Shown in pieces: positions 3,661 through 43,156 of a stretch of DNA of 64,000 bases. This DNA comes from Escherichia phage vB_EcoM_ESCO9, in sequence record OM386654.1. One strand, given 5' to 3'. The position numbers and the translations under genes are program-made. Under the pieces are notes generated by a model. It did no database searches. It was given only the letters and a program-made list of their open reading frames with translations, and was not told the origin of the DNA. Positions within the stretch are counted from its first letter, which is position 1, and each line of letters begins with the position of its first letter.

Positions 3661-4510
3661 TCAAATTCAACATTTTGCTAATACTTTTACTAACCTGAAG
3701 GAAGCAAAATTTAACATTGCAGATTATTCCAAACTAAAGTTTGGTAGTAACCAGGCAGCAAAAAGAATGGGGCGCATTCTGGCTGAAAGTTTCTTTTCTA
3801 AGTATGAAGAACGACTGGTAAATGAAAGTTTTGTTGTTATTCCATCTCCATATAACTATGTGAAAAATGCAGCTACAGTGTTATCTGAACATTTTGTAGA
3901 TCACCTCAACTACCTAATCTCTATCAAAGGTGGTAAACCAGTGGAGTGGGATATCGTTCATCGTAAAGTGAGCTATATCAATGATTATGGATTTCTTAGC
4001 AAAGAAGATCGTAAGGCTTTGATCGATGGTGACACTTTCTCTATCAATCGTGATTTCTGGGGTAATAAAACTCTGATTTTCATTGATGATGTTAATATTA
4101 CAGGAACGCACGAAGAAAAACTTATTGAAATTTTAGACAAAGAAGGTGTTGAAAACGATACGTTTTTCCTGTACTTTGCAAAGTATGAAGGTACAGAAGC
4201 CAACACCGAAGCTGCACTTAACTTCAACTATATCAATAACCTGGCAGCTTTTATTAAGATGATTAAGCAAGAAACTGATGCTAAATGTTTGGTTCGTCCT
4301 ATTAAGTATCTAATGAGTCAAAGCGAAGTTGATTTTAAAATTGCACTTTCACAGCTTCCTTTGTATTATGTAGAACAACTGTTCTTTGGTTGCCTTGCAG
4401 AAGGCTACAATAACATTGAAAAATATAAAGAGAACTTTGATTTTCTACGTCAATTTTTTGAAAGCAACATTATCAATAAATCTAATGTTAAAGGGGATTA
4501 TTATGTCTAA
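3653..4510 (+). CDS. Phosphoribosyltransferase (PRTase)-domain protein
   Basis: PRPP-binding type motif LIFIDDVNITGTHEE; start overlaps HAD stop (translational coupling). Confidence 0.55.
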   Translation: MRNQIQHFANTFTNLKEAKFNIADYSKLKFGSNQAAKRMGRILAESFFSKYEERLVNESFVVIPSPYNYVKNAATVLSEHFVDHLNYLISIKGGKPVEWDIVHRKVSYINDYGFLSKEDRKALIDGDTFSINRDFWGNKTLIFIDDVNITGTHEEKLIEILDKEGVENDTFFLYFAKYEGTEANTEAALNFNYINNLAAFIKMIKQETDAKCLVRPIKYLMSQSEVDFKIALSQLPLYYVEQLFFGCLAEGYNNIEKYKENFDFLRQFFESNIINKSNVKGDYYV

Positions 4511-5219
4511 TAAAGTAATGACTTTCGGAGATCCTATCACCAATATTACAGAAAAAGATTTTGGGCGTGTAGCAACAGATAAAGATGGTGTCTTAAGAAT
4601 TCGTGTACAAGGTATTACAGCACAGGATGAATATGCTGTGTATGTTTCAGGTCTTAACTATATTGATGATCGCATTACACAAAACTTTGCACTGATCGGT
4701 GGTGTAGAGAAAATGTACTGGGAAGATGAAATTGTAACAAGTTATCCAGCAGGTATCATTGAGGTATACGGTGATCTTTTAGCAGCAGCCGAGAGAGGCG
4801 ATATAGACGCTATAGCACACTGCTGTAACTGTTTTTGCACTATGGGTAGTGGTATTGCACCAAAAATTAAAAGTAAGTGGCCTGGGGCGTTTAAAGCAGA
4901 CTGTGCCACTAAACGTGGTGATTATAAAAAATTAGGTACGTTTACCAAGTATACAGAAAACAATTTGACAATTTATAATTTATATGGACAATATGGTTAT
5001 AGTCGTCGTGAGGAAGGCAAGCGTGACCTGAATTATGAAGCTATCTATAATGCGTTAGATAGTATGGGAGACGATGTTGTATCTTCAGGCGGTAAAATTG
5101 TAGGTTTACCAATGCTTGGTTGTGGTTTGGCTGGAGGTTCTTGGAATATTGTAAAACTTATGATCGAAGAAACTCTAGTAAACAAAGGTTTAAATGTAAT
5201 TGTTTACAAACTGAAATAA
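4503..5219 (+). CDS. Macro-domain-like protein (ADP-ribose binding/processing)
   Basis: DAIAHCCNC...GSGIA and LPMLGCGLAGG resemble macro-domain phosphate-binding loops; start ATG 4503 overlaps PRTase stop; RBS AAAGGGGA. Confidence 0.45.
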   Translation: MSNKVMTFGDPITNITEKDFGRVATDKDGVLRIRVQGITAQDEYAVYVSGLNYIDDRITQNFALIGGVEKMYWEDEIVTSYPAGIIEVYGDLLAAAERGDIDAIAHCCNCFCTMGSGIAPKIKSKWPGAFKADCATKRGDYKKLGTFTKYTENNLTIYNLYGQYGYSRREEGKRDLNYEAIYNALDSMGDDVVSSGGKIVGLPMLGCGLAGGSWNIVKLMIEETLVNKGLNVIVYKLK

Positions 5220-5228
5220 GGAGAAAGT

Positions 5229-5435
5229 ATGGCAGGTGTTTTAGCAGTATTAGGTTGTTTTATTGTTGTGTTCTTGATTGTGTTAATCCCTAGTTGGCTA
5301 CTGCTTTTAGCATACAATTATATGATTGACATTATCGGCTTAGACTGGCATCATGTTCCTGTAACGTTTTGGAGTGTAGTCTGTGTGACGTTCATTCTTG
5401 CGGTACTCCGTGGTATCTTTCAATCTAACAAATAA
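5229..5435 (+). CDS. Small membrane protein (68 aa, 2 predicted TM helices)
   Basis: Hydrophobic stretches VLAVLGCFIVVFLIVLIPSWLLLLAY and VTFWSVVCVTFILAVL; RBS AAGGAGAAAG. Confidence 0.4.
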   Translation: MAGVLAVLGCFIVVFLIVLIPSWLLLLAYNYMIDIIGLDWHHVPVTFWSVVCVTFILAVLRGIFQSNK

Positions 5436-5449
5436 GAGAGGATCTTTAT

Positions 5450-5698
5450 ATGCGTAAAGTAAATGTTGAAGTGCTTGAAAAATTTATAAACACCCGTGAT
5501 TGTACTATCGGCAAGGTTTACGAGGCTATTCTCATTGAAGATGGGGATGAAGTTCCTGCCCCGTATCATGCCTTTAACGGTCAGGTTAGCAAAGTGGAAG
5601 GTGGTCTTGCTATTTGCTTTATTGATGATGTAGGTGATGCTGTAGCTTTCCCTATCATTAACAAAGAAGATAAACTTAAAATTACAGAACTGAACTAG
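5450..5698 (+). CDS. Hypothetical protein (82 aa)
   Basis: ORF with RBS GAGAGGATC upstream; no recognised motif. Confidence 0.4.
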   Translation: MRKVNVEVLEKFINTRDCTIGKVYEAILIEDGDEVPAPYHAFNGQVSKVEGGLAICFIDDVGDAVAFPIINKEDKLKITELN

Positions 5699-5726
5699 TT
5701 GACTTTCTTTAAAAACAGTTTATAGT
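5699..5726 (+). promoter_or_regulatory. Sigma70-like promoter candidate (TTGACT-16-TATAGT) upstream of terC-like gene
   Basis: Near-consensus -35 and -10 hexamers with 16-nt spacer. Confidence 0.35.
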
Positions 5727-5738
5727 ATAAGATATAGA

Positions 5739-5757
5739 GCGGAGGATTGTCCTCCGC
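5739..5757 (+). other. Stem-loop in putative 5' UTR of terC-like gene (GCGGAGG-ATTGT-CCTCCGC), no U-tract
   Basis: Perfect 7-bp inverted repeat between promoter candidate and RBS GAGGAG. Confidence 0.35.
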
Positions 5758-5775
5758 ATTAAAGAGGAGATAAGA

Positions 5776-6753
5776 ATGCAACTGGGTTTCCCAATTATTG
5801 ATGTGGTTGTTTTAGTGGGTATTTTAGTGTTGTCGATTTGTATTGATTTCTTTGGCCACAGAGAAAACAAAGAAATTTCATTTAAATCTGCAATTGGTTG
5901 GTCAATTTTTTGGATTGGGGTATCATTAGCCTACTATGGTTTTGTATACTTCCAGCACGGTGCTGATTTTGCGAGCTTGTTCTTGAGTGGGTATGTGTTG
6001 GAGAAATCTCTTTCTGTAGATAACTTAGTAGTATTTGTGGCAGTATTCGCAAGTTTTGGTATTAAAAGCACACACTTGCAACACAAGATTCTACTTTGGG
6101 GTATTGCAGGTGCGATTGTCTTCCGAGGTGTGTTTGTAGCAGTAGGCACTTACTTGTTGAGTTTGGGTTGGTATGTTAATATCTTCTTCGGTGCTGTCAT
6201 CCTTTTCTGTGCGGCTAAAATGGTATTCGCTGGAGATAATGATGCAGAAGTTGATTACTCTAAACACTGGGCTACTCGCATTGTTCGTAAGCTGTTCCCT
6301 GTATCTGATCAGATGGATGGTGAGAAGTTCTTCACAATCAAAAATGGTGTTCGTGTAGCAACTCCGGCTCTGGTTTGTGTGTTTGTAATGGAAATGGTTG
6401 ACGTAATCTTTGCAGTAGACTCTGTTCCAGCAGTAATTGCAGTGACACAAGAACCTCTGCTGGTGTTCTCTTCGATGCTCTGTGCAATCTTAGGTTTACG
6501 TGCTCTGTTCTTTGTTCTTAGTGTTGCACTGAAGTATTTGGTTCATCTGGAGAAAGCAGTTATCGTAGTCCTGGTATTTGTGGGTGTAAAACTGATGTAT
6601 CATCCGTTTGCAGAAACTCTGCACGCAAAAGTGAGTTTCCTGCCAGCACACATTGATCCGACGATCAGTATGTATATTGTGTTAGGTACTCTTGGGTTGG
6701 GTGTTATTGCAAGTTTAATCTTCCCTGAAAAAGAAGACCAGACTGTTGCTTAA
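5776..6753 (+). CDS. terC: TerC-family integral membrane protein
   Basis: Multi-TM protein with duplicated TerC signature: LEKSLSVDNLVVFVAVF and EMVDVIFAVDSVPAVIAVT. Confidence 0.8.
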   Translation: MQLGFPIIDVVVLVGILVLSICIDFFGHRENKEISFKSAIGWSIFWIGVSLAYYGFVYFQHGADFASLFLSGYVLEKSLSVDNLVVFVAVFASFGIKSTHLQHKILLWGIAGAIVFRGVFVAVGTYLLSLGWYVNIFFGAVILFCAAKMVFAGDNDAEVDYSKHWATRIVRKLFPVSDQMDGEKFFTIKNGVRVATPALVCVFVMEMVDVIFAVDSVPAVIAVTQEPLLVFSSMLCAILGLRALFFVLSVALKYLVHLEKAVIVVLVFVGVKLMYHPFAETLHAKVSFLPAHIDPTISMYIVLGTLGLGVIASLIFPEKEDQTVA

Positions 6754-35388: not shown

Positions 35389-36876
35389 TTAGACTCCGTA
35401 CTCGTAGGAAATATTATCAAGGTCAAAGGATGGTACAACATTGTACGCTGGAGTGATATCTCCCTCATTATATTTACTGTCATCCTCAGTATTAAGTTTA
35501 ACATAAACACGGAGAGAAGTCAAGCGTCCGAACGCAAGTGCAGAATAAATTACACCTTTTATCTGATCGTTAGTTACTGTTGACCCTAGCTCAAAATAAG
35601 CCTGTAAGTTTGCAAGAGCAGAAACAATATTTTCCCTTTCTGTTGTACTTAGCACACTACCATTGCCAGTTTGATACACCAGTTTAAGTGAATATTCAGC
35701 ATTGTCACCAGGAGAAAAACGAATTACTTCTTGACCGCCATCTTCTGTTACGATAGTAATTGCTGTTGTACCATAGGTTAAGGTGTTAATAGGCTTAGTA
35801 TTATAAATAACCTGTGCAACTTCTTCTGCTGTACCACCATACACAATAGTCTGGAATGTCATAGCTGGAGCATGTTCCTGATCATGTAATGTAGGGTTAT
35901 CATAAATCTTAACCTTTGTCACACCATCTGTCAGTAGCAGGGCTTTAACAATAGCAGCACGAGTAGCAGCATTAGCTTCATCCATATTATCATTGAAACG
36001 AGAACGGAATTCTGCATCTGTTTCAACATCTGTACCTGGAGAGAATGGATAGAAGTTACCTGTATCTAAAAAGCCTGTAAACGTTGAAGAAATACCTGTG
36101 ATACTTTCTGTACCTACTGGATTATAACCAACGTCTGAACACGTAACTGGAATTTCACTCCATTTTGTACCAATTGCAATAGATGCGTAAAATTTCACTG
36201 GTGTTACTAGACCTATTGGGTTAACATTATCTTCTGGATTATAACCCATATAAACATTACTAGCATCATTCCATACTAAAGCACGATCTGTTGTTGATAC
36301 GTTAGCTTTAATGAAATTCGTGAGATCTAAAATAAAGTTTGTATTGCTAGGACTTAATGTTTTACTGTTAAGACCACCATCAATAGCACTTTGAATGTAG
36401 AAAGTAATAGAAGTTTCACCAGAAGCTGTTGCGTTTGCTTTAGAAATGGTGTATGCTCCAATCTTAGCATTCAACATTGTTGGTGCACTGACATAATATG
36501 TCAAATCGTTATCGGCATTAAAATAAACATCTGTGCTTAGTTCATAAGTCCAAGCTGCCTTATTGTTAGATTTAACATAAGCATAACCACTACCAGCAGA
36601 AGCAGCTTTACGATAAAAACCTCTTTTAGAGAAGATTTCATCAAGGTAAATACCTTCTGCACCATCTAAGGTTTGGGTATTGTAAACACCTTGCATACCT
36701 TCCCAAAGGGTGTAATCTGTATATGCAATAATACGAAACAGTTGACCAAAGACAGTATCTTCAGATGTAGCTGTATCTGCACCGAAAGTGTTTTTCAATG
36801 CTGTCATATAATTATTTAAAATATCATCAAACGTTGGAATTACAAAACCAGCATCTGTTAAACCATAATCTGCCAT
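35389..36876 (-). CDS. Baseplate wedge protein (gpJ-like), tentative
   Basis: 495 aa; size and position in baseplate cluster. Confidence 0.4.
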   Translation of the reverse strand: MADYGLTDAGFVIPTFDDILNNYMTALKNTFGADTATSEDTVFGQLFRIIAYTDYTLWEGMQGVYNTQTLDGAEGIYLDEIFSKRGFYRKAASAGSGYAYVKSNNKAAWTYELSTDVYFNADNDLTYYVSAPTMLNAKIGAYTISKANATASGETSITFYIQSAIDGGLNSKTLSPSNTNFILDLTNFIKANVSTTDRALVWNDASNVYMGYNPEDNVNPIGLVTPVKFYASIAIGTKWSEIPVTCSDVGYNPVGTESITGISSTFTGFLDTGNFYPFSPGTDVETDAEFRSRFNDNMDEANAATRAAIVKALLLTDGVTKVKIYDNPTLHDQEHAPAMTFQTIVYGGTAEEVAQVIYNTKPINTLTYGTTAITIVTEDGGQEVIRFSPGDNAEYSLKLVYQTGNGSVLSTTERENIVSALANLQAYFELGSTVTNDQIKGVIYSALAFGRLTSLRVYVKLNTEDDSKYNEGDITPAYNVVPSFDLDNISYEYGV

Positions 36877-37121
36877 TAGTTATCCTCCTTATCAGGGGCA
36901 GGTGATCTGCCCCAACGTAAATCTATTAAATTCTTCATTAGTCTGGATGGTGTGATCATAAAAACAAAAGCCCAGCCCATCCATTCAGGAATTTCTTTAT
37001 CAATTCCCAAATAAATAAACATACTGGACATAACAATCATACCAATAGCATTCCAAACTTTAGTAGAACTGACTTTATTATCAGGATATGTACAGAACAT
37101 ACCTATTAAAAATTTTCTCAT
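36876..37121 (-). CDS. Small membrane protein with two TM helices (holin-like topology)
   Basis: VWNAIGMIVMSSMFIYLGI and WMGWAFVFMITP hydrophobic segments; charged C-terminus. Confidence 0.35.
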   Translation of the reverse strand: MRKFLIGMFCTYPDNKVSSTKVWNAIGMIVMSSMFIYLGIDKEIPEWMGWAFVFMITPSRLMKNLIDLRWGRSPAPDKEDN

Positions 37122-37630
37122 GGTGCGTTCTCATTACTTTTTAAATCACGATATACAGCTAATTCCCCAAGGTCTACAGAACCCGCTGAATGCACAAGTA
37201 CAGCAGCACTAAGACTAATGGCAGTAGTACCTGGGGCAATATCAGCAGGTAGGGAAAGCGGGGTTTCTGTTACCAACTTGCATCTATATAAAACGTTGGA
37301 GATGTAGTTGTGGACCCTTCAATCGATATTTGTCCTGTTGAAGCATTAATGGTGGCCATTGCCATGCCAAATGAAACGCCATCAGCAGTGAACGGTACAG
37401 GGACATTTTTGGTTACTTTTGGTCTGCACCACCTTGGCAGCGTTGGAATTATCATAACTTGGTATTTTTGTAATCGACTGTAGAGTAAGGTCAGTGGCTA
37501 AAACCACTCCAGTGTCAGTAAGAAAGTTGGAAACTGTGCTTTTAACAGTCTTATCAGGTTGGTCTAAAACCAGGTAATCTGAACCATTAACTTTTGATGT
37601 TTCGGGTAAATTAGTAATTGTAGTTGACAT
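37119..37630 (-). pseudogene. Tail-fiber-related gene apparently disrupted by two frameshifts
   Basis: Three consecutive overlapping reading frames (37630-37382, 37455-37270, ~37280-37118) each encode protein-like sequence; first segment shares N-terminal motif with 42683-43156 gene. Confidence 0.35.
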
Positions 37631-37638
37631 TTTTACTC

Positions 37639-39798
37639 CTATATATAAAATTTTTGTGTTGTTACTAAATCTTCTCCAGATTTAGTGGCTAATGTAATTC
37701 CACTTATGGTGGCAATCGTAACATTTACCTGTTTAAGAGTGATATCTTGCAAATAGCAATTCAAAGGCACATTACCCATATAAAAAACTTGGGATTTTGA
37801 ATTAAGAACAGTTATTGAATCATGCATTATTTGTGGATAAGCCCATATGTATTGATATAAACCAACAAACTTCTGGTCATTCAATACAATATTACCTATA
37901 ATCATTTTCCACAAATATGTCCTATAGTTTGATTCAGGATCAAAGCCATATAATGGTGCTAGAGTTGCATCTGGAACAAACCCTGCAAGATAATGTATCT
38001 TATCATAACTAAAACCTAGTTGCTCATTAGGTATTGTGATAGCGTCAAAAGATCTTTCCATCTTACCTTCCAACAACCAATCATAACATTCTGAACAATA
38101 AAAATCAAAGTTTTCTGGGATATAATAATCTTTAGGGAAGTTAACAAATTCCATCATACCGTTACCTAAGATGGATGGTACAAATGGTAACAATGTAACT
38201 TTTGCCCCAGGATATGCTAATCTAGTATCTGTTGCAAATTTAGCAACACGCAGTCCTAATGTTTTAGATAGGAATGCATAATATTCATCATATGGTGTAC
38301 CAGTTTTATAATTCTTAACTGTACCAACATCTTGTGCATATAATCCAGTTTCATTATTAAATGCAACTTTGGTTGTATAATCATAAATACACGGTAGATT
38401 GGTAGCTGTATTATACCACCACCACGGTTCACCAACCTGAATAATAACCGGAAGATCATTAGCAGCGGATATAGAAGCTATCTTATTTATTACACCTTGT
38501 AAATAATTCATCCCTTCATCAATTGAAGGAGATAAAACATAACTTGGTGGCTCATAACCTGTAGCAGCCAGATCATCATTCCAAGTATGTTGTACCCATT
38601 CTACAGGACACACTGTACTCATAAGTTCAAAACTTAAGGAGTTCATTACTGTGTAGCCCATAGCTTTTGCATTAGCGTGGAAGTTATCAAACCAGGCTTC
38701 TGTTGCTGGGTTTAAATATTCTGTTCTGTTCAAAGCCCATTTATTAGAGCCAGCGTCCCAACTAAATTGATAATAATGTGACATACCATTATAGTGGTTA
38801 ATCATATCCCTATAACCTAATCTGTAGGTGTTAGAAATAACTCGCTCTGGGGTAAGGTTATACATATCATCATAAGATGTACACATTCTTATGGTGTGTG
38901 CTGGAACATTTAAATTACCCATATTCATCATACTATAACCCGTATCAGGTTCCAGTATGGTAAACTTAAAGGAAAGATCCTCATTGTCTACAGGAATAAT
39001 ATCTTCAATTTCTTGATACCTTGTGGAGATCAAGGAGAAGAACATATTATCTATCTGTGTAGTGTCAACAACAATATCATTTTCTGGCCCAGATTTTAAA
39101 TTTGAGAAATCTAATTTTATTGTTGCTGTTTTACCATCCTCTGAAACTTCTTCTGCATAAAAGTTTAGAGATACATAATGAACTGTTTCATCCTTCAGTG
39201 TCACTGTTAAGGATGGCAATAATTTTTCTTCTTTTAATCCAGGAACACCTTGACTAAGTTCCATTTTAAACCAAAGTTTCTCTTTACTTAAGTCAGAATG
39301 TTCTTGGTAGCCTAATCCTTTGTGATCATATTTATCGTAAGTTGACCAAATAATCCCAGCAAGACCAGCCACTGTCCTATTAACCATTCTTGCTGTGAAA
39401 GAATCACCATTAGAGATAATAGAACAACTTTCTGTTGCTTGAGAATCTATTGTCCAAAACTTAGGATCAAACATTCTAGACTTCACAACAGGCCAAGTTA
39501 GCGGGGTTGTATTCGATTGATCAGTCGTAATAACACAACGAATTTCTTCATTGATCATCATGTTATTTTGACTTATGCTAGTAATCTCAAGAGTAAAATA
39601 AAGATCTAAAGAGTTTGCCGGACGTTCATATACATCAACCACTACAGTAGCAGAATCTGCATCAGAAGGGAACGTTACTGTTCCCTGTTTAGCTACATAA
39701 TCTCTACCAGCGACCGCCGTTCCATCGACGGTCTTATAGCTGAATGAACTGGCATTTACTCTCGTATTTCGAGTTACAGTAAAAATAGCCTGTTTCAT
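37639..39798 (-). CDS. Tail/baseplate protein with N-terminal Calx-beta-like domain
   Basis: FSYKTVDGTAVAGRDYVAKQGTVTFPSDADSATVVVDV resembles Calx-beta motif. Confidence 0.45.
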   Translation of the reverse strand: MKQAIFTVTRNTRVNASSFSYKTVDGTAVAGRDYVAKQGTVTFPSDADSATVVVDVYERPANSLDLYFTLEITSISQNNMMINEEIRCVITTDQSNTTPLTWPVVKSRMFDPKFWTIDSQATESCSIISNGDSFTARMVNRTVAGLAGIIWSTYDKYDHKGLGYQEHSDLSKEKLWFKMELSQGVPGLKEEKLLPSLTVTLKDETVHYVSLNFYAEEVSEDGKTATIKLDFSNLKSGPENDIVVDTTQIDNMFFSLISTRYQEIEDIIPVDNEDLSFKFTILEPDTGYSMMNMGNLNVPAHTIRMCTSYDDMYNLTPERVISNTYRLGYRDMINHYNGMSHYYQFSWDAGSNKWALNRTEYLNPATEAWFDNFHANAKAMGYTVMNSLSFELMSTVCPVEWVQHTWNDDLAATGYEPPSYVLSPSIDEGMNYLQGVINKIASISAANDLPVIIQVGEPWWWYNTATNLPCIYDYTTKVAFNNETGLYAQDVGTVKNYKTGTPYDEYYAFLSKTLGLRVAKFATDTRLAYPGAKVTLLPFVPSILGNGMMEFVNFPKDYYIPENFDFYCSECYDWLLEGKMERSFDAITIPNEQLGFSYDKIHYLAGFVPDATLAPLYGFDPESNYRTYLWKMIIGNIVLNDQKFVGLYQYIWAYPQIMHDSITVLNSKSQVFYMGNVPLNCYLQDITLKQVNVTIATISGITLATKSGEDLVTTQKFYI

Positions 39799-39806
39799 TA
39801 TTTTCC

Positions 39807-42683
39807 TTATTTGGTTACATCAACACTAATATCATTCATAGTTAGAACAGTTAGTGTTGGTATGTTACTATTATCCAAAATTGGTAAAGCGTTTTGAGGG
39901 TTTAGTTTACGATACAAGGCATATAAACCAAAACCACGTAATAGTTCTCCAGCATGGAAACCAAAGAACATTCCGTTATCTGAATCTGGGCGTGGTGCAA
40001 CACTCCAGCAACCATTCATCGGATGGTTAGGGGAAAGCACAATATAGTTTTGCTGAATCAGATCAAAACATCTGTCTGCTACAATACCAATGTTTGGAAT
40101 TTGTGAATCATAACCTGCCAAGCCCATGATTGAACAACCAGCCATAAACAGTGCAGACATATGACTAGTAAAGTCATCAATAGGTGCAAGAACTGTACCA
40201 TCTGGGTTAAAGATAGTTGGTGTTCTTCCATCATTATTGTCTTGGAACCATTTAAGGTAGTTGATCCAATTTTTACAAACAGTTACTAGTTTTTCAGGAG
40301 GTGTTTCTCCTCTTTGTACAAGTTCGTATACAGTATGACAAGCACAGTAGAATGCACGAGCTTCATAACCATCCCACGCTTTTTCATTCCAGTGTTTCAT
40401 TGTAAACGTATTAGGTTCACCGTATTTTCTTGCATCCCAACGATCCCACACATATGCTTGTGCCATAGGCCCAGGCATCACAGGATCAAACGTGTTATAA
40501 AACCACATTTGAGCATCATACAAGAAATCAATACTGTTGTTTAAACGTGTCCAATCAATATCCCTACCTGCGAAACAGTATAAGGAAGGATACTGGTATC
40601 CTGGGTATGGAATACCACGCCATCCATCGTATAATGCAGTGTTTGGGTCACTGATATTAGAGAATGGAATTATTCCTGGTGTGTAATTAAGACTATTTAA
40701 CTTATAGTCAATAATAGTACAATCACCTAACTTAGCAGTATGAGGACTTGAAGCCTGTACAGTAATACGGAAGTACATGGTATAATCATCACCAGAAGAT
40801 GACGAATATCTTTCAGGTACATCGTTAATACAATAGAAATCTATTGTTCCTGTTAAACCATTGACAGGAGCCGTATCAAGAACTAAATTTACCTGATCTA
40901 CAGCAGTAAGATTTATTGCTGAAGGTTTAGGATCTGTTTCTGGATGATTAGGCTGGTAAGCACTTAACTTAAAAGCAGAGGCTGATAAAGTCTTCGTACT
41001 CCATGCCCCTTGCGTTTTAGGCAGCATAGCCCACCATCTCCAACCTTGATCATCCGTGATAGTCATGTTAAAGTCATCTTCATATGTTCTATATGTAATA
41101 GACTTAACATTAGCTTTTGATGTAGGAGTTAACCAAAAACCAACAGTAACACCACCATCCGTATCCATTGATGCAGTAACAATCTGGTCATTATTAGTTC
41201 CAGCAATACCTGTTACATACTTATATTGTACCACAGTATTGTCACCCCAGTCAACAATAATTCGCGGATCTGCGATAATATATGTTCCACCACTAGGAGG
41301 GGTACTTCTCATAAAGCTGGATAGTGGAATATCCATGCTTGTCATATTAGCTGTACCTAGTGGTAAGCCACAGCGGTAAGTTACTGTGTTATTTTCATCT
41401 TTGGTCTTACTTAATTCCAACTCTGGACGGAAAAGAATACCATGTCCTGCGTCATCTACACCTTGAAACTGGACTCGTAACTTAGAGTTCTGATCAACTT
41501 TAAACCAAATGGCTTGCTGTTCTAATGTTGTTTGAGCAGCAACATCTTGTCTAATAACAATATAGCCTAAAGTATCTCTTGAATATTTAGGTATTGCTGT
41601 AGATGGATACGAATAATCGTAAGAGATGCCATCTGTAAACGGGATAGTTGCATATGTAGACTTACGGAAGAATTTATCAAACATATCAATGTTTGAGTAA
41701 TCTTGACACACTAACAGTGAAGACTGCCAGCATAGCCAATATTTTCTTTCTCCTGTAATTTGGTACATCAGGTAATTAGCATCACACCACCAAGTTTCAG
41801 CATCTGACGCATTATCCTGAAAGCCCATTTCTACCGGAACGTTAACTGGTCTGTTATGCCACATAGTGTTACGCTCCATTAAATAACCACCGTGTTCAAC
41901 AGGGTTACAAGTCGCGTAGTTAAATTTATATGTACCGTTTACAGAAGTATTTTTTAGTTGAACTGTTCCGTATTGAGATGTTGGAAAACCTTCTTCTAAG
42001 ATATTCCCATCCCAGTCAACTTTACGTCCTAGACGATCAATGATCCAATCAACATCCCATTGATCTCCCTTCTTAGACCAATCTGTTGTACCATCTGCAT
42101 TAACAGCATACACTGTAGCGTTTACAGAGTTCCATCCTAGATTACCATTAAAAGCAAACCATGCTTTGTCAAGGTATTCTCCCCAATGAGGAGCACCATG
42201 AGGAATAACTGTTCTGCCGTTAGTCCACGTCATTAAGCTACCCTTAAAACCTCCGTGTGTAGGGTAGCCATCATCTGTAAGAGGATAGTGCGCAAGACGT
42301 GGTTCTTTACCGTTAATAATCCAGTTAGGGCGATATTTTGCTGGCGGATCTGGGATAGGTTGACCACCAAAGAAGTAATCTATATAGGCTTGCCAATATT
42401 TTTTAGCAGAGTCTAAATACTTTGTATCGCCGGAAGCCAGGTATGCATAAGCGCAACCAAGAATAAGCACGGATTGACCTTCTGTTGTAGCATCCCCGTT
42501 TGGTTGCCCTTCTTGAGCAGTCCAGTTTATAAAGTGTCTGTTATTAGCTAGAACGTTTTGTGGGTTTAATACATAGTGTTGCACTGTAGGATCTACAGTT
42601 AAACCTGTATTACGATCTAAGAACTGAATATGTCCATCGATCAGTTGAAAAACATTGTCAATTCTGTGCTTAATTCTTGACAT
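39807..42683 (-). CDS. Large tail/baseplate-associated protein (958 aa), possible carbohydrate-active domain
   Basis: Size and position; aromatic-rich segments; no definitive motif. Confidence 0.45.
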   Translation of the reverse strand: MSRIKHRIDNVFQLIDGHIQFLDRNTGLTVDPTVQHYVLNPQNVLANNRHFINWTAQEGQPNGDATTEGQSVLILGCAYAYLASGDTKYLDSAKKYWQAYIDYFFGGQPIPDPPAKYRPNWIINGKEPRLAHYPLTDDGYPTHGGFKGSLMTWTNGRTVIPHGAPHWGEYLDKAWFAFNGNLGWNSVNATVYAVNADGTTDWSKKGDQWDVDWIIDRLGRKVDWDGNILEEGFPTSQYGTVQLKNTSVNGTYKFNYATCNPVEHGGYLMERNTMWHNRPVNVPVEMGFQDNASDAETWWCDANYLMYQITGERKYWLCWQSSLLVCQDYSNIDMFDKFFRKSTYATIPFTDGISYDYSYPSTAIPKYSRDTLGYIVIRQDVAAQTTLEQQAIWFKVDQNSKLRVQFQGVDDAGHGILFRPELELSKTKDENNTVTYRCGLPLGTANMTSMDIPLSSFMRSTPPSGGTYIIADPRIIVDWGDNTVVQYKYVTGIAGTNNDQIVTASMDTDGGVTVGFWLTPTSKANVKSITYRTYEDDFNMTITDDQGWRWWAMLPKTQGAWSTKTLSASAFKLSAYQPNHPETDPKPSAINLTAVDQVNLVLDTAPVNGLTGTIDFYCINDVPERYSSSSGDDYTMYFRITVQASSPHTAKLGDCTIIDYKLNSLNYTPGIIPFSNISDPNTALYDGWRGIPYPGYQYPSLYCFAGRDIDWTRLNNSIDFLYDAQMWFYNTFDPVMPGPMAQAYVWDRWDARKYGEPNTFTMKHWNEKAWDGYEARAFYCACHTVYELVQRGETPPEKLVTVCKNWINYLKWFQDNNDGRTPTIFNPDGTVLAPIDDFTSHMSALFMAGCSIMGLAGYDSQIPNIGIVADRCFDLIQQNYIVLSPNHPMNGCWSVAPRPDSDNGMFFGFHAGELLRGFGLYALYRKLNPQNALPILDNSNIPTLTVLTMNDISVDVTK

Positions 42684-43156
42684 TAAATCACTCCTGCCAT
42701 CACTAAACTACCTATCCAGGTAGCTCCATTATCATAACTAACAAATTCAAAAATATCTGTAGCTCCCTGTTTATAACTCAAAACAGGAGCGCGACCAAAA
42801 CTCCATTTAACAGATTGAGGCCACGTTACTTTATTTGCTCCACTGCCTTGACGTAGGGATAGAGTAAAGTTTTGAACAATGTTAGTTGTAACTGGAACAT
42901 TACTAAATGAAATACTGCAAGTTGGACTAGATAAAGTGGCAGAGAAATACTCTGCCGTGCTAATATCTAAAGCTAGGGTATTTGTAACAGTACCCCTTGC
43001 AGAAAGACGATTTCGTGTAACACCAGCACCCGCAAGAAGAACACGTAATGATGTTTTCTTAGTGATGCCTGATTGATCTGTTACAAAATAATCTGTGTCT
43101 GAAACAGATGTTGTTACAGGTAGATCAGACACCTTGATTGTAGTTAAATCAGCCAT
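42683..43156 (-). CDS. Small tail-fiber-related protein (157 aa)
   Basis: N-terminal motif TIKVSDLPVTTSVSDTDYFVTDQSGITKKTSL shared with 37382-37630 segment. Confidence 0.45.
   Translation of the reverse strand: MADLTTIKVSDLPVTTSVSDTDYFVTDQSGITKKTSLRVLLAGAGVTRNRLSARGTVTNTLALDISTAEYFSATLSSPTCSISFSNVPVTTNIVQNFTLSLRQGSGANKVTWPQSVKWSFGRAPVLSYKQGATDIFEFVSYDNGATWIGSLVMAGVI

Follow-up and report, generated by a model that had tools for sequence, protein, structure and literature searches.

What is encoded between two intact structural genes of Escherichia phage vB_EcoM_ESCO9, where three short open reading frames (ORFs) overlap or adjoin one another? A reading made from the sequence alone had taken this interval for a tail-fibre-related gene split across three reading frames by two apparent frameshifts, and had named as possible causes a decaying paralogue (pseudogene), a site of programmed frameshifting and a sequencing or assembly error in a homopolymer-containing region. 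The interval lies in a window of 64,000 nt of sequence record OM386654.1, to which coordinates refer unless another source is given. Among the options named, that of a pseudogene is borne out: with a probability of about 0.9 we take the interval for a non-functional remnant of an exchangeable tailspike cassette in the slot of phi92 gp143. Comparison with related sequences suggests that what was lost was a tailspike of 657-659 residues, composed of a Stephanstirmvirinae anchor and an SGNH-esterase body.

Reading frames of the three ORF pieces

The three pieces are indeed present between the two intact genes, all on the minus strand: piece 1 at 37382-37630 (82 aa, frame A), piece 2 at 37270-37455 (61 aa, frame B, +1 relative to piece 1) and piece 3 at 37118-37276 (52 aa, TTG start, frame A). 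Translation of 37100-37639 gives the frame order A, B, A; the pieces use two frames rather than three, only piece 2 departing from the frame of the others, and the remaining frame carries 17 stops. Nor do the two frame changes represent frameshifts. When aligned to orthologues, as had been proposed for locating the shift points, the change from A to B coincides with an out-of-frame deletion junction (deletion 1 below), and the change from B to A is the native stop of a tailspike gene, after which a fragment of a different ORF begins. The possibility that the pieces are independent small genes in related phages holds for piece 3 only, which belongs in relatives to a separate 102-residue ORF; pieces 1 and 2 belong to one tailspike. 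The original observation is thus partly confirmed, and its interpretation partly supported.

None of the window pieces gave a domain match in Pfam. A look-up of the exact 82-residue product of piece 1 found no other contig carrying it; hence no sibling with the same deletion is on record.

A variable tailspike slot

The window is DNA of a Justusliebigvirus (phi92-like, Stephanstirmvirinae) phage with its structural genes on the minus strand, and a 20-kb stretch around the locus is 98.5-99.1% identical to phages PaulScherrer, AV123, alia, PD06, BME3 and VEcB. The remnant (37118-37630, minus strand) is flanked by two intact genes of the same strand, the homologues of phi92 gp142 (37639-39798, 719 aa) and gp144 (36876-37121, a small membrane protein of 81 aa, phrog_1322). 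In phi92 the same position between gp142 and gp144 is occupied by gp143, the endosialidase EndoN92 of 918 residues, which a cryo-EM study of 2026 inferred to be the tip of 'fibre I' on the baseplate (PMC13450770). Relatives with backbones ~99% identical carry tailspikes of 552, 618, 624, 705 or 749 residues in this slot, while in relatives of the muut/Eryne type it is wholly empty. The slot is a hotspot for tailspike cassette exchange, and the empty-slot relatives show that the baseplate tolerates a vacancy.

Judged as a slot-143 tailspike gene, the remnant has the expected position between the gp142 and gp144 homologues, on the same strand and with a ribosome-binding site (RBS) of its own, and it has the N-terminal anchor of ~46 residues, with 97-100% nucleotide identity to many members over 37494-37650. 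What it lacks is the single ORF of ~550-920 codons with a receptor-binding or enzymatic body; an ORF of 82 codons is left and the body is deleted.

Composition of the tailspike remnant

Read from the sequence, the Shine-Dalgarno motif AGGAG of the slot tailspike gene is intact (37636-37640, minus strand); it shares nucleotides with the TAG stop that ends the gp142 homologue (37639-37641), and the same motif is annotated as the RBS of phi92 gene 143. Codons 1-46 (37493-37630, minus strand, frame A) form the conserved Stephanstirmvirinae slot-143 anchor module, MSTTITNLPETSKVNGSDYLVLDQPDKTVKSTVSNFLTDTGVVLAT, 97-100% identical at the nucleotide level to the 5' ends of phi92 gp143 and of the PD06, alia and other tailspike genes. 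Homology to the slot tailspike genes of those relatives ends at 37494, dozens of them sharing 37494-37650 at 97-99% identity.

Codons 47-63 (37441-37492, minus strand), still in the native frame A, represent the start of a tailspike body of SGNH-esterase type, DLTLQSITKIPSYDNSN, and end in the retained repeat copy TTCCAACG (37441-37448), at which deletion 1 has its junction. Within this segment 37441-37480 has 92.5% identity to codons 139-152 of E. coli prophage tailspikes, and residues 40-67 of piece 1 match positions 136-163 of phrog_17606 (E = 4e-4). The 3' end of the tailspike gene follows in frame B (37273-37440, minus strand): its last 56 full codons, or 57 with the stop, encoding LPRWCRPKVTKNVPVPFTADGVSFGMAMATINASTGQISIEGSTTTSPTFYIDASW and having no start codon or RBS of their own in use. 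Piece 2 matches positions 696-753 of the 753 in phrog_17606 (E = 2e-36). With the stop included, 37270-37440 has 95.3% nucleotide identity to the 3' end of the prophage tailspike gene in locus L012 and 84.8% to that in the metagenomic phage locus L019; the native stop TAA (37270-37272, minus strand) aligns with the stops in L012, L013 and L019.

Pieces 1 and 2 accordingly belong to one family, both matching phrog_17606 in collinear order. N-proximal and C-terminal profile homology to this SGNH/GDSL-esterase family is retained in the window; the hydrolase domain itself (PF13472 region, prophage residues ~450-627) falls inside the 1613-1616-nt deletion.

Relatives in prophages and in metagenomic phages

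The middle segment of the interval matches E. coli chromosomes at the extreme 3' end of P22-like prophage genes annotated 'phage tailspike protein' or 'SGNH/GDSL hydrolase', in the orientation of the window genes, and it occurs on IMG/VR prophage contigs as well. Nucleotide and protein searches with this segment against 50,697 phage records gave no match, and tblastn with the full tailspike body against phage records gave just distant matches (23-28% identity); the body is thus absent from the INPHARED phage genome records. Scans for the anchor/body junction found it neither as an exact pattern in IMG/VR nor as a wobble-degenerate pattern in JGI metagenomes. A word-indexed protein search with the 66-residue frame-B peptide also returned no match, a false negative of the short query: its residues are nearly identical to C-termini retrieved later by a longer one. 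The prophage tailspike protein matches phrog_17606 from end to end; in Pfam it has the P22 Head_binding domain (PF09008) at residues 1-113 and a weak GDSL-lipase match at residues 450-627.

The longer query was reconstructed from the anchor and prophage residues 136-745, and was searched against 5.8 billion proteins. It retrieved five proteins of 659 residues (P0015, P0017, P0018, P0019 and P0021) with 100% query cover and 85-86% identity, which start MSTTITNLPETSKVNGSDYLVLDQPDKTVKSTVSNFLTDTGVVLATDLTLQSITKIPSYDNSNVVQAW and end STTTSPMFYIDASW (P0015, P0017 and P0019) or FYIDAVW (P0018 and P0021). They are encoded on metagenomic phage contigs of 111-152 kb, some of ~151 kb, in synteny identical to that of the window: gp141 (958 aa), gp142 (717), tailspike (659), 102-aa ORF, gp144 (80) and gp145 (495). 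A phmmer search of the 659-residue tailspike against PDB sequences gave no match.

These intact orthologues lie on backbones 75-84% identical to the window, and we found no genome combining a 99% backbone with an intact version of the window's tailspike. The 3' piece in the window is nearer to the prophage genes (95%) than to the 659-residue orthologues (85%), while its 5' 190 nt are 99% identical to the orthologues; the true ancestor was therefore an unsampled mosaic. We also observed that E. coli P22-like prophage tailspike genes share a core of ~150 nt with the 3' fragment at 100% identity (37273-37440 against L012 4011-4178); the positions that differ from L012 are grouped within the final 25 nt and within 20 nt of the deletion junction. 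Such a pattern speaks for a temperate podovirus and a virulent myovirus having exchanged sequence recently, or else for ends that are mosaic.

Deletion 1 between short direct repeats

Pieces 1 and 2 are joined at an imperfect 8-nt direct repeat, TTCCAACG / TTCTAACG. Compared with the intact genes, 1613 nt (prophages) or 1616 nt (L019-21) are missing, both numbers being 2 modulo 3; it is this remainder that changes the frame at the junction and produces the first apparent 'frameshift'. In all of the eight prophage tailspike genes that carry both sites, the octamer TTCTAACG occurs twice, 1613 nt apart, in the contexts '...GATAATTCTAACG|TAGTCC' and '...ACTGTTCTAACG|CTTCCGAGGTGG'. At the window junction, 'GATAATTCCAACG|CTGCCAAGGTGG', a single copy of the repeat stands and the intervening sequence is gone.

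Pairwise alignments agree with this picture. A prophage gene gives two BLAST matches to the window, 37441-37480 and 37263-37448, which overlap by 8 nt; the latter covers the final 59 codons with their stop and a further 7 nt, and frame B is native there. From the ATG onward L019 is identical to the window at 188 of 190 nt through TTCCAACG (gene nt 183) and diverges exactly after it; in L019 TTCTAACG is found at gene nt 1799, which gives the gap of 1616 nt. Three mismatches are grouped directly 3' of the junction. Deletion between short direct repeats is typical of replication slippage or microhomology-mediated deletion.

A second junction, a half terminator and a relic ORF

After the TAA stop the window continues with CAGAAACCCCGCTT and then with TCCCTACCTGCTG. 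The former is a stub of the 3' UTR (37256-37269, minus strand), comprising the left arm and half of the loop of a terminator hairpin. In L019, PD06, PaulScherrer and BME3 the hairpin AACCCCGC-TTCG-GCGGGG stands directly after the tailspike stop; in the window its right arm is gone, and the junction of deletion 2 shows T/TT microhomology at 37256-37257. Folding gave -13 to -15.7 kcal/mol in the relatives vs -4 kcal/mol in the window, and a terminator scan predicted none at this locus. A conserved terminator-like motif ('motif three') has been described downstream of the RBP genes of Justusliebig-, Kutter- and Gamaleyavirus (Pas et al. 2023, PMC10408124).

On the other side of the junction lies the 3' end of a relic ORF (37118-37255, minus strand, frame A), ~46 codons and a stop, from an N-terminal docking domain of the CBA120-TSP1/G7C-gp63.1 type. 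It has lost the RBS, the start codon and ~56 codons at its 5' end, and in the sequence ATGA its TGA stop shares nucleotides with the ATG that opens the gp144 homologue. Positions 37100-37256 have 100% nucleotide identity to PD06, BME3 and other relatives, and the relic has 98.5% to L019. In the relatives GGGCGTAT|TCCCTACCTGCTG encodes residues ~55-60 of a 102-aa ORF; the window lacks 205 nt compared with BME3, 207 with PaulScherrer and 408 with PD06 and L019. That the relic and piece 1 share a frame is a coincidence.

PD06, BME3, PaulScherrer and L019 have the 102-residue ORF complete; in ALITA 63 aa of it are left after 5' truncation, and phi92, alia and muut lack it. It matches residues 1-95 of 4oj5, 4qnl, 5w6f and 5w6h (E from 3.7e-49 to 3.2e-22), as well as the N-termini of many tail-spike PHROGs. 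A complete docking domain would have ~95 residues and a start codon; the window keeps codons ~57-102, with no ATG or RBS. Judged by these matches, the 102-aa ORF is itself the stub of an older tailspike's docking domain.

The annotation of the small ORF deserves a remark. GenBank labels the 63-102-aa ORF 'tailspike protein' or 'tail protein' (L003 4019-4327, L016 4019-4324, L018 4019-4327, L017 4019-4210 and L019 7232-7540), and the paper on BME3 describes it as part of a two-CDS tail spike. We observed a stand-alone copy, perhaps still functional and perhaps a fossil, of the N-terminal docking domain of the CBA120 TSP1/G7C gp63.1 type, with a stop that overlaps the gp144 start.

Alternative explanations

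If the interval were a sequencing or assembly artefact, the real phage would carry an intact single ORF, broken up in the record by indels in homopolymers or by a collapse during assembly. The overlap zone does contain such runs (A4, A5), and the exact 82-residue product has no other record. Yet all of these runs, A5 at 37469, A4 at 37420 and A5 at 37410, have the same length as in the intact homologues, and what is missing compared with the intact genes is 1.6 kb and 0.2-0.4 kb, not single nucleotides; restoring single bases cannot yield a tailspike, as the catalytic body is absent. A collapse is implausible as well, since the sequence shared at the junctions, an imperfect repeat of 8 nt at one and 1-2 nt at the other, is much shorter than any k-mer used in assembly. 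We regard the error that had been proposed for this homopolymer region as very improbable. Even less credible is a decaying paralogue of the small tail protein at 42683-43156 (157 aa, phrog_9017), the homologue of phi92 gp140. The N-terminal motif that had suggested this relation is real, and this protein is the sole other window ORF that the anchor matches (E = 3e-4); the resemblance is short and weak, with 14 of 38 residues identical (37%; pairwise E = 3e-6), and is confined to an attachment motif of ~38 residues. Beyond this motif piece 1 belongs to phrog_17606, as does the whole of piece 2, and this PHROG family differs from that of the gp140 homologue; piece 3 is an N-terminal domain of the CBA120-TSP1 type, and the positional orthologues are long tailspikes.

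Programmed ribosomal frameshifting would turn the pieces into one product of ~168 residues, a short fibre or an adaptor. It is true that pieces 1 and 3 share a frame and that piece 2 is open across the gap, such that a +1 followed by a -1 shift gives a continuous sequence. However, two opposite shifts would be required, the A-to-B change needing +1, and no slippery heptamer X XXY YYZ was found in the A/B overlap zone (gene nt 134-246). Moreover, the A-to-B change falls at the deletion junction and the B-to-A change at a conserved stop followed by 3' UTR and half a terminator; the orthologues are single 659-residue ORFs with no shift, the arrangement occurs in no other phage record, and the ~168-residue product would have no receptor-binding body at all. 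A programmed site here is hardly conceivable.

Proposed origin of the remnant

The reading that we prefer is that of a pseudogene left by deletion. The sequences compared show the homologies directly, together with both junctions, the repeat and the occurrence of intact orthologues in an identical gene order; from these we infer the order and mechanism of the two deletions. The ancestor would have had the gene order gp142, a tailspike of 657-659 residues, a terminator hairpin with or without a spacer, the 102-residue relic ORF and gp144. Its tailspike would have combined the lineage-specific anchor of 46 residues with an SGNH/GDSL-esterase body related to those of P22-like prophages, fused just after the end of the prophage head-binding domain and linker (residue ~136). 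Deletion 1 would have removed ~1.6 kb (1613-1616 nt) between TTCCAACG and TTCTAACG, the whole catalytic body included, with the result that the last 57 codons follow codon 63 in the wrong frame. Deletion 2 would have extended from the hairpin loop of the terminator into the relic ORF as far as codon ~57, taking 205-408 nt. Alternatively, the second junction could date from the import of the cassette itself, as the boundary of the original illegitimate recombination, rather than from a deletion afterwards. The deletion may also be limited to a part of the phage population.

We also infer that the loss was tolerated or even favoured, the cognate surface glycan presumably being absent on the propagation host; under such conditions loss through a short-repeat deletion is to be expected, and empty-slot relatives such as muut and Eryne fit this view. 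By analogy with G7C gp63.1, the glycan targeted by the intact esterase tailspike would be O-acetylated O-antigen. As the 82-codon ORF keeps its RBS (AGGAG) and ATG, a short anchor-only peptide may be made; if so, it cannot bind or cleave a receptor.

Relation to known systems

The locus belongs to the exchangeable 'fibre I' tailspike slot of Justusliebigvirus/Stephanstirmvirinae, as described in earlier work (Schwarzer et al. 2012, cited in PMC11984140; PMC13450770). It shares with phi92 gp143 (EndoN92) the position, the RBS and the 46-residue anchor (97-99% nucleotide identity); its body, in contrast, was an SGNH esterase and not an endosialidase, and only 17 N-proximal and 57 C-terminal codons of it are left. 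With the esterase tailspikes of P22-like (Lederbergvirus-type) prophages in phrog_17606 (WP_227898968.1, WP_274461688.1) it has both body fragments in collinear order and the same stop. In the prophage proteins, however, the place of the Stephanstirmvirinae anchor is taken by the P22 Head_binding domain (PF09008), and the window lacks ~535 of their codons, the GDS(L) catalytic region included. To the 659-residue chimeric tailspikes (P0015-P0021) of metagenomic phi92-like phages the body fragments of the window are homologous and collinear.

Exchange of RBDs between temperate podoviruses and virulent myoviruses is known from Det7 and P22 (Walter et al. 2008, as cited in PMC12210895), and modular RBD exchange has also been described by Pas et al. 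2023 (PMC10408124). As in those cases, here the anchor of the lineage is conserved, the RBD was imported from another phage group and a terminator motif lies downstream; unlike them, the window keeps just a scar of the import. Conserved flanking motifs were reported to be absent from Lederberg/Uetakevirus prophage RBPs (PMC10408124); despite this, the donor-like sequences at our locus come from P22-like prophages. Finally, the 102-residue ORF of PD06, BME3, PaulScherrer and L019 matches residues 1-95 of CBA120 TSP1/TSP3/TSP4 and G7C gp63.1 (4oj5, 5w6f, 5w6h and 4qnl), but it stands alone, with no tailspike body, and the window copy is further 5'-deleted.

In practical terms, the phage should be scored as having no slot-143 (fibre I) tailspike in host-range prediction, and the three small ORFs should neither be annotated as tail-fibre genes nor be 'repaired' as frameshifts. 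The locus illustrates, cleanly and in a datable way, how tailspikes turn over in phi92-like 'Swiss-army-knife' phages and how an esterase RBD of P22-like prophages was imported into a virulent myovirus and later lost by short-repeat deletion. The feature is real and has an ordinary explanation, which opens no new question.

Possible residual roles and additional observations

A scar of this kind need not be inert. The 82-codon ORF keeps a strong RBS, a start codon and 63 native codons (anchor and linker), and a stub could therefore still be made; such a stub might cap or occupy the six fibre-I docking sites of the baseplate, and the sequences bookending the slot might serve as landing pads for recombination, roles that we consider rather unlikely. 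Were the bookends landing pads, homologous recombination would move whole tailspike cassettes between Stephanstirmvirinae genera, and the 102-residue relic would be a selected recombination element rather than junk.

Comparison of the metagenomic phage with PD06 or the window gave identities of 96-99% for the anchor, 99.2% for the spacer of 247-251 nt and 99.0% for the 102-aa relic ORF, while the adjoining core genes gp142, gp144 and gp145 are 75-80% identical (L019 5001-7540; L003 (PD06) 4019-6692; window 37118-37630). By these identities, the slot appears to be passed from one lineage to another as a whole, relic included, between bookends that are conserved.

On the plus strand at 37624-37651 we observed a sigma-70-like sequence close to the consensus, TTGACA-16-TAAAAT (11/12), which is antisense to the structural genes and straddles the tailspike start codon. 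It is probably a chance occurrence: one site was found vs 4.6 expected in shuffles.

Five records labelled 'Campylobacter phage' with C. jejuni as host, A150, A145, C3, A110a and B15 (INPHARED ids MG065639, MG065645, MG065656, MG065689 and MG065650), are ~96-98% identical to E. coli Justusliebigvirus at this locus; they are probably mislabelled or contaminant genomes.
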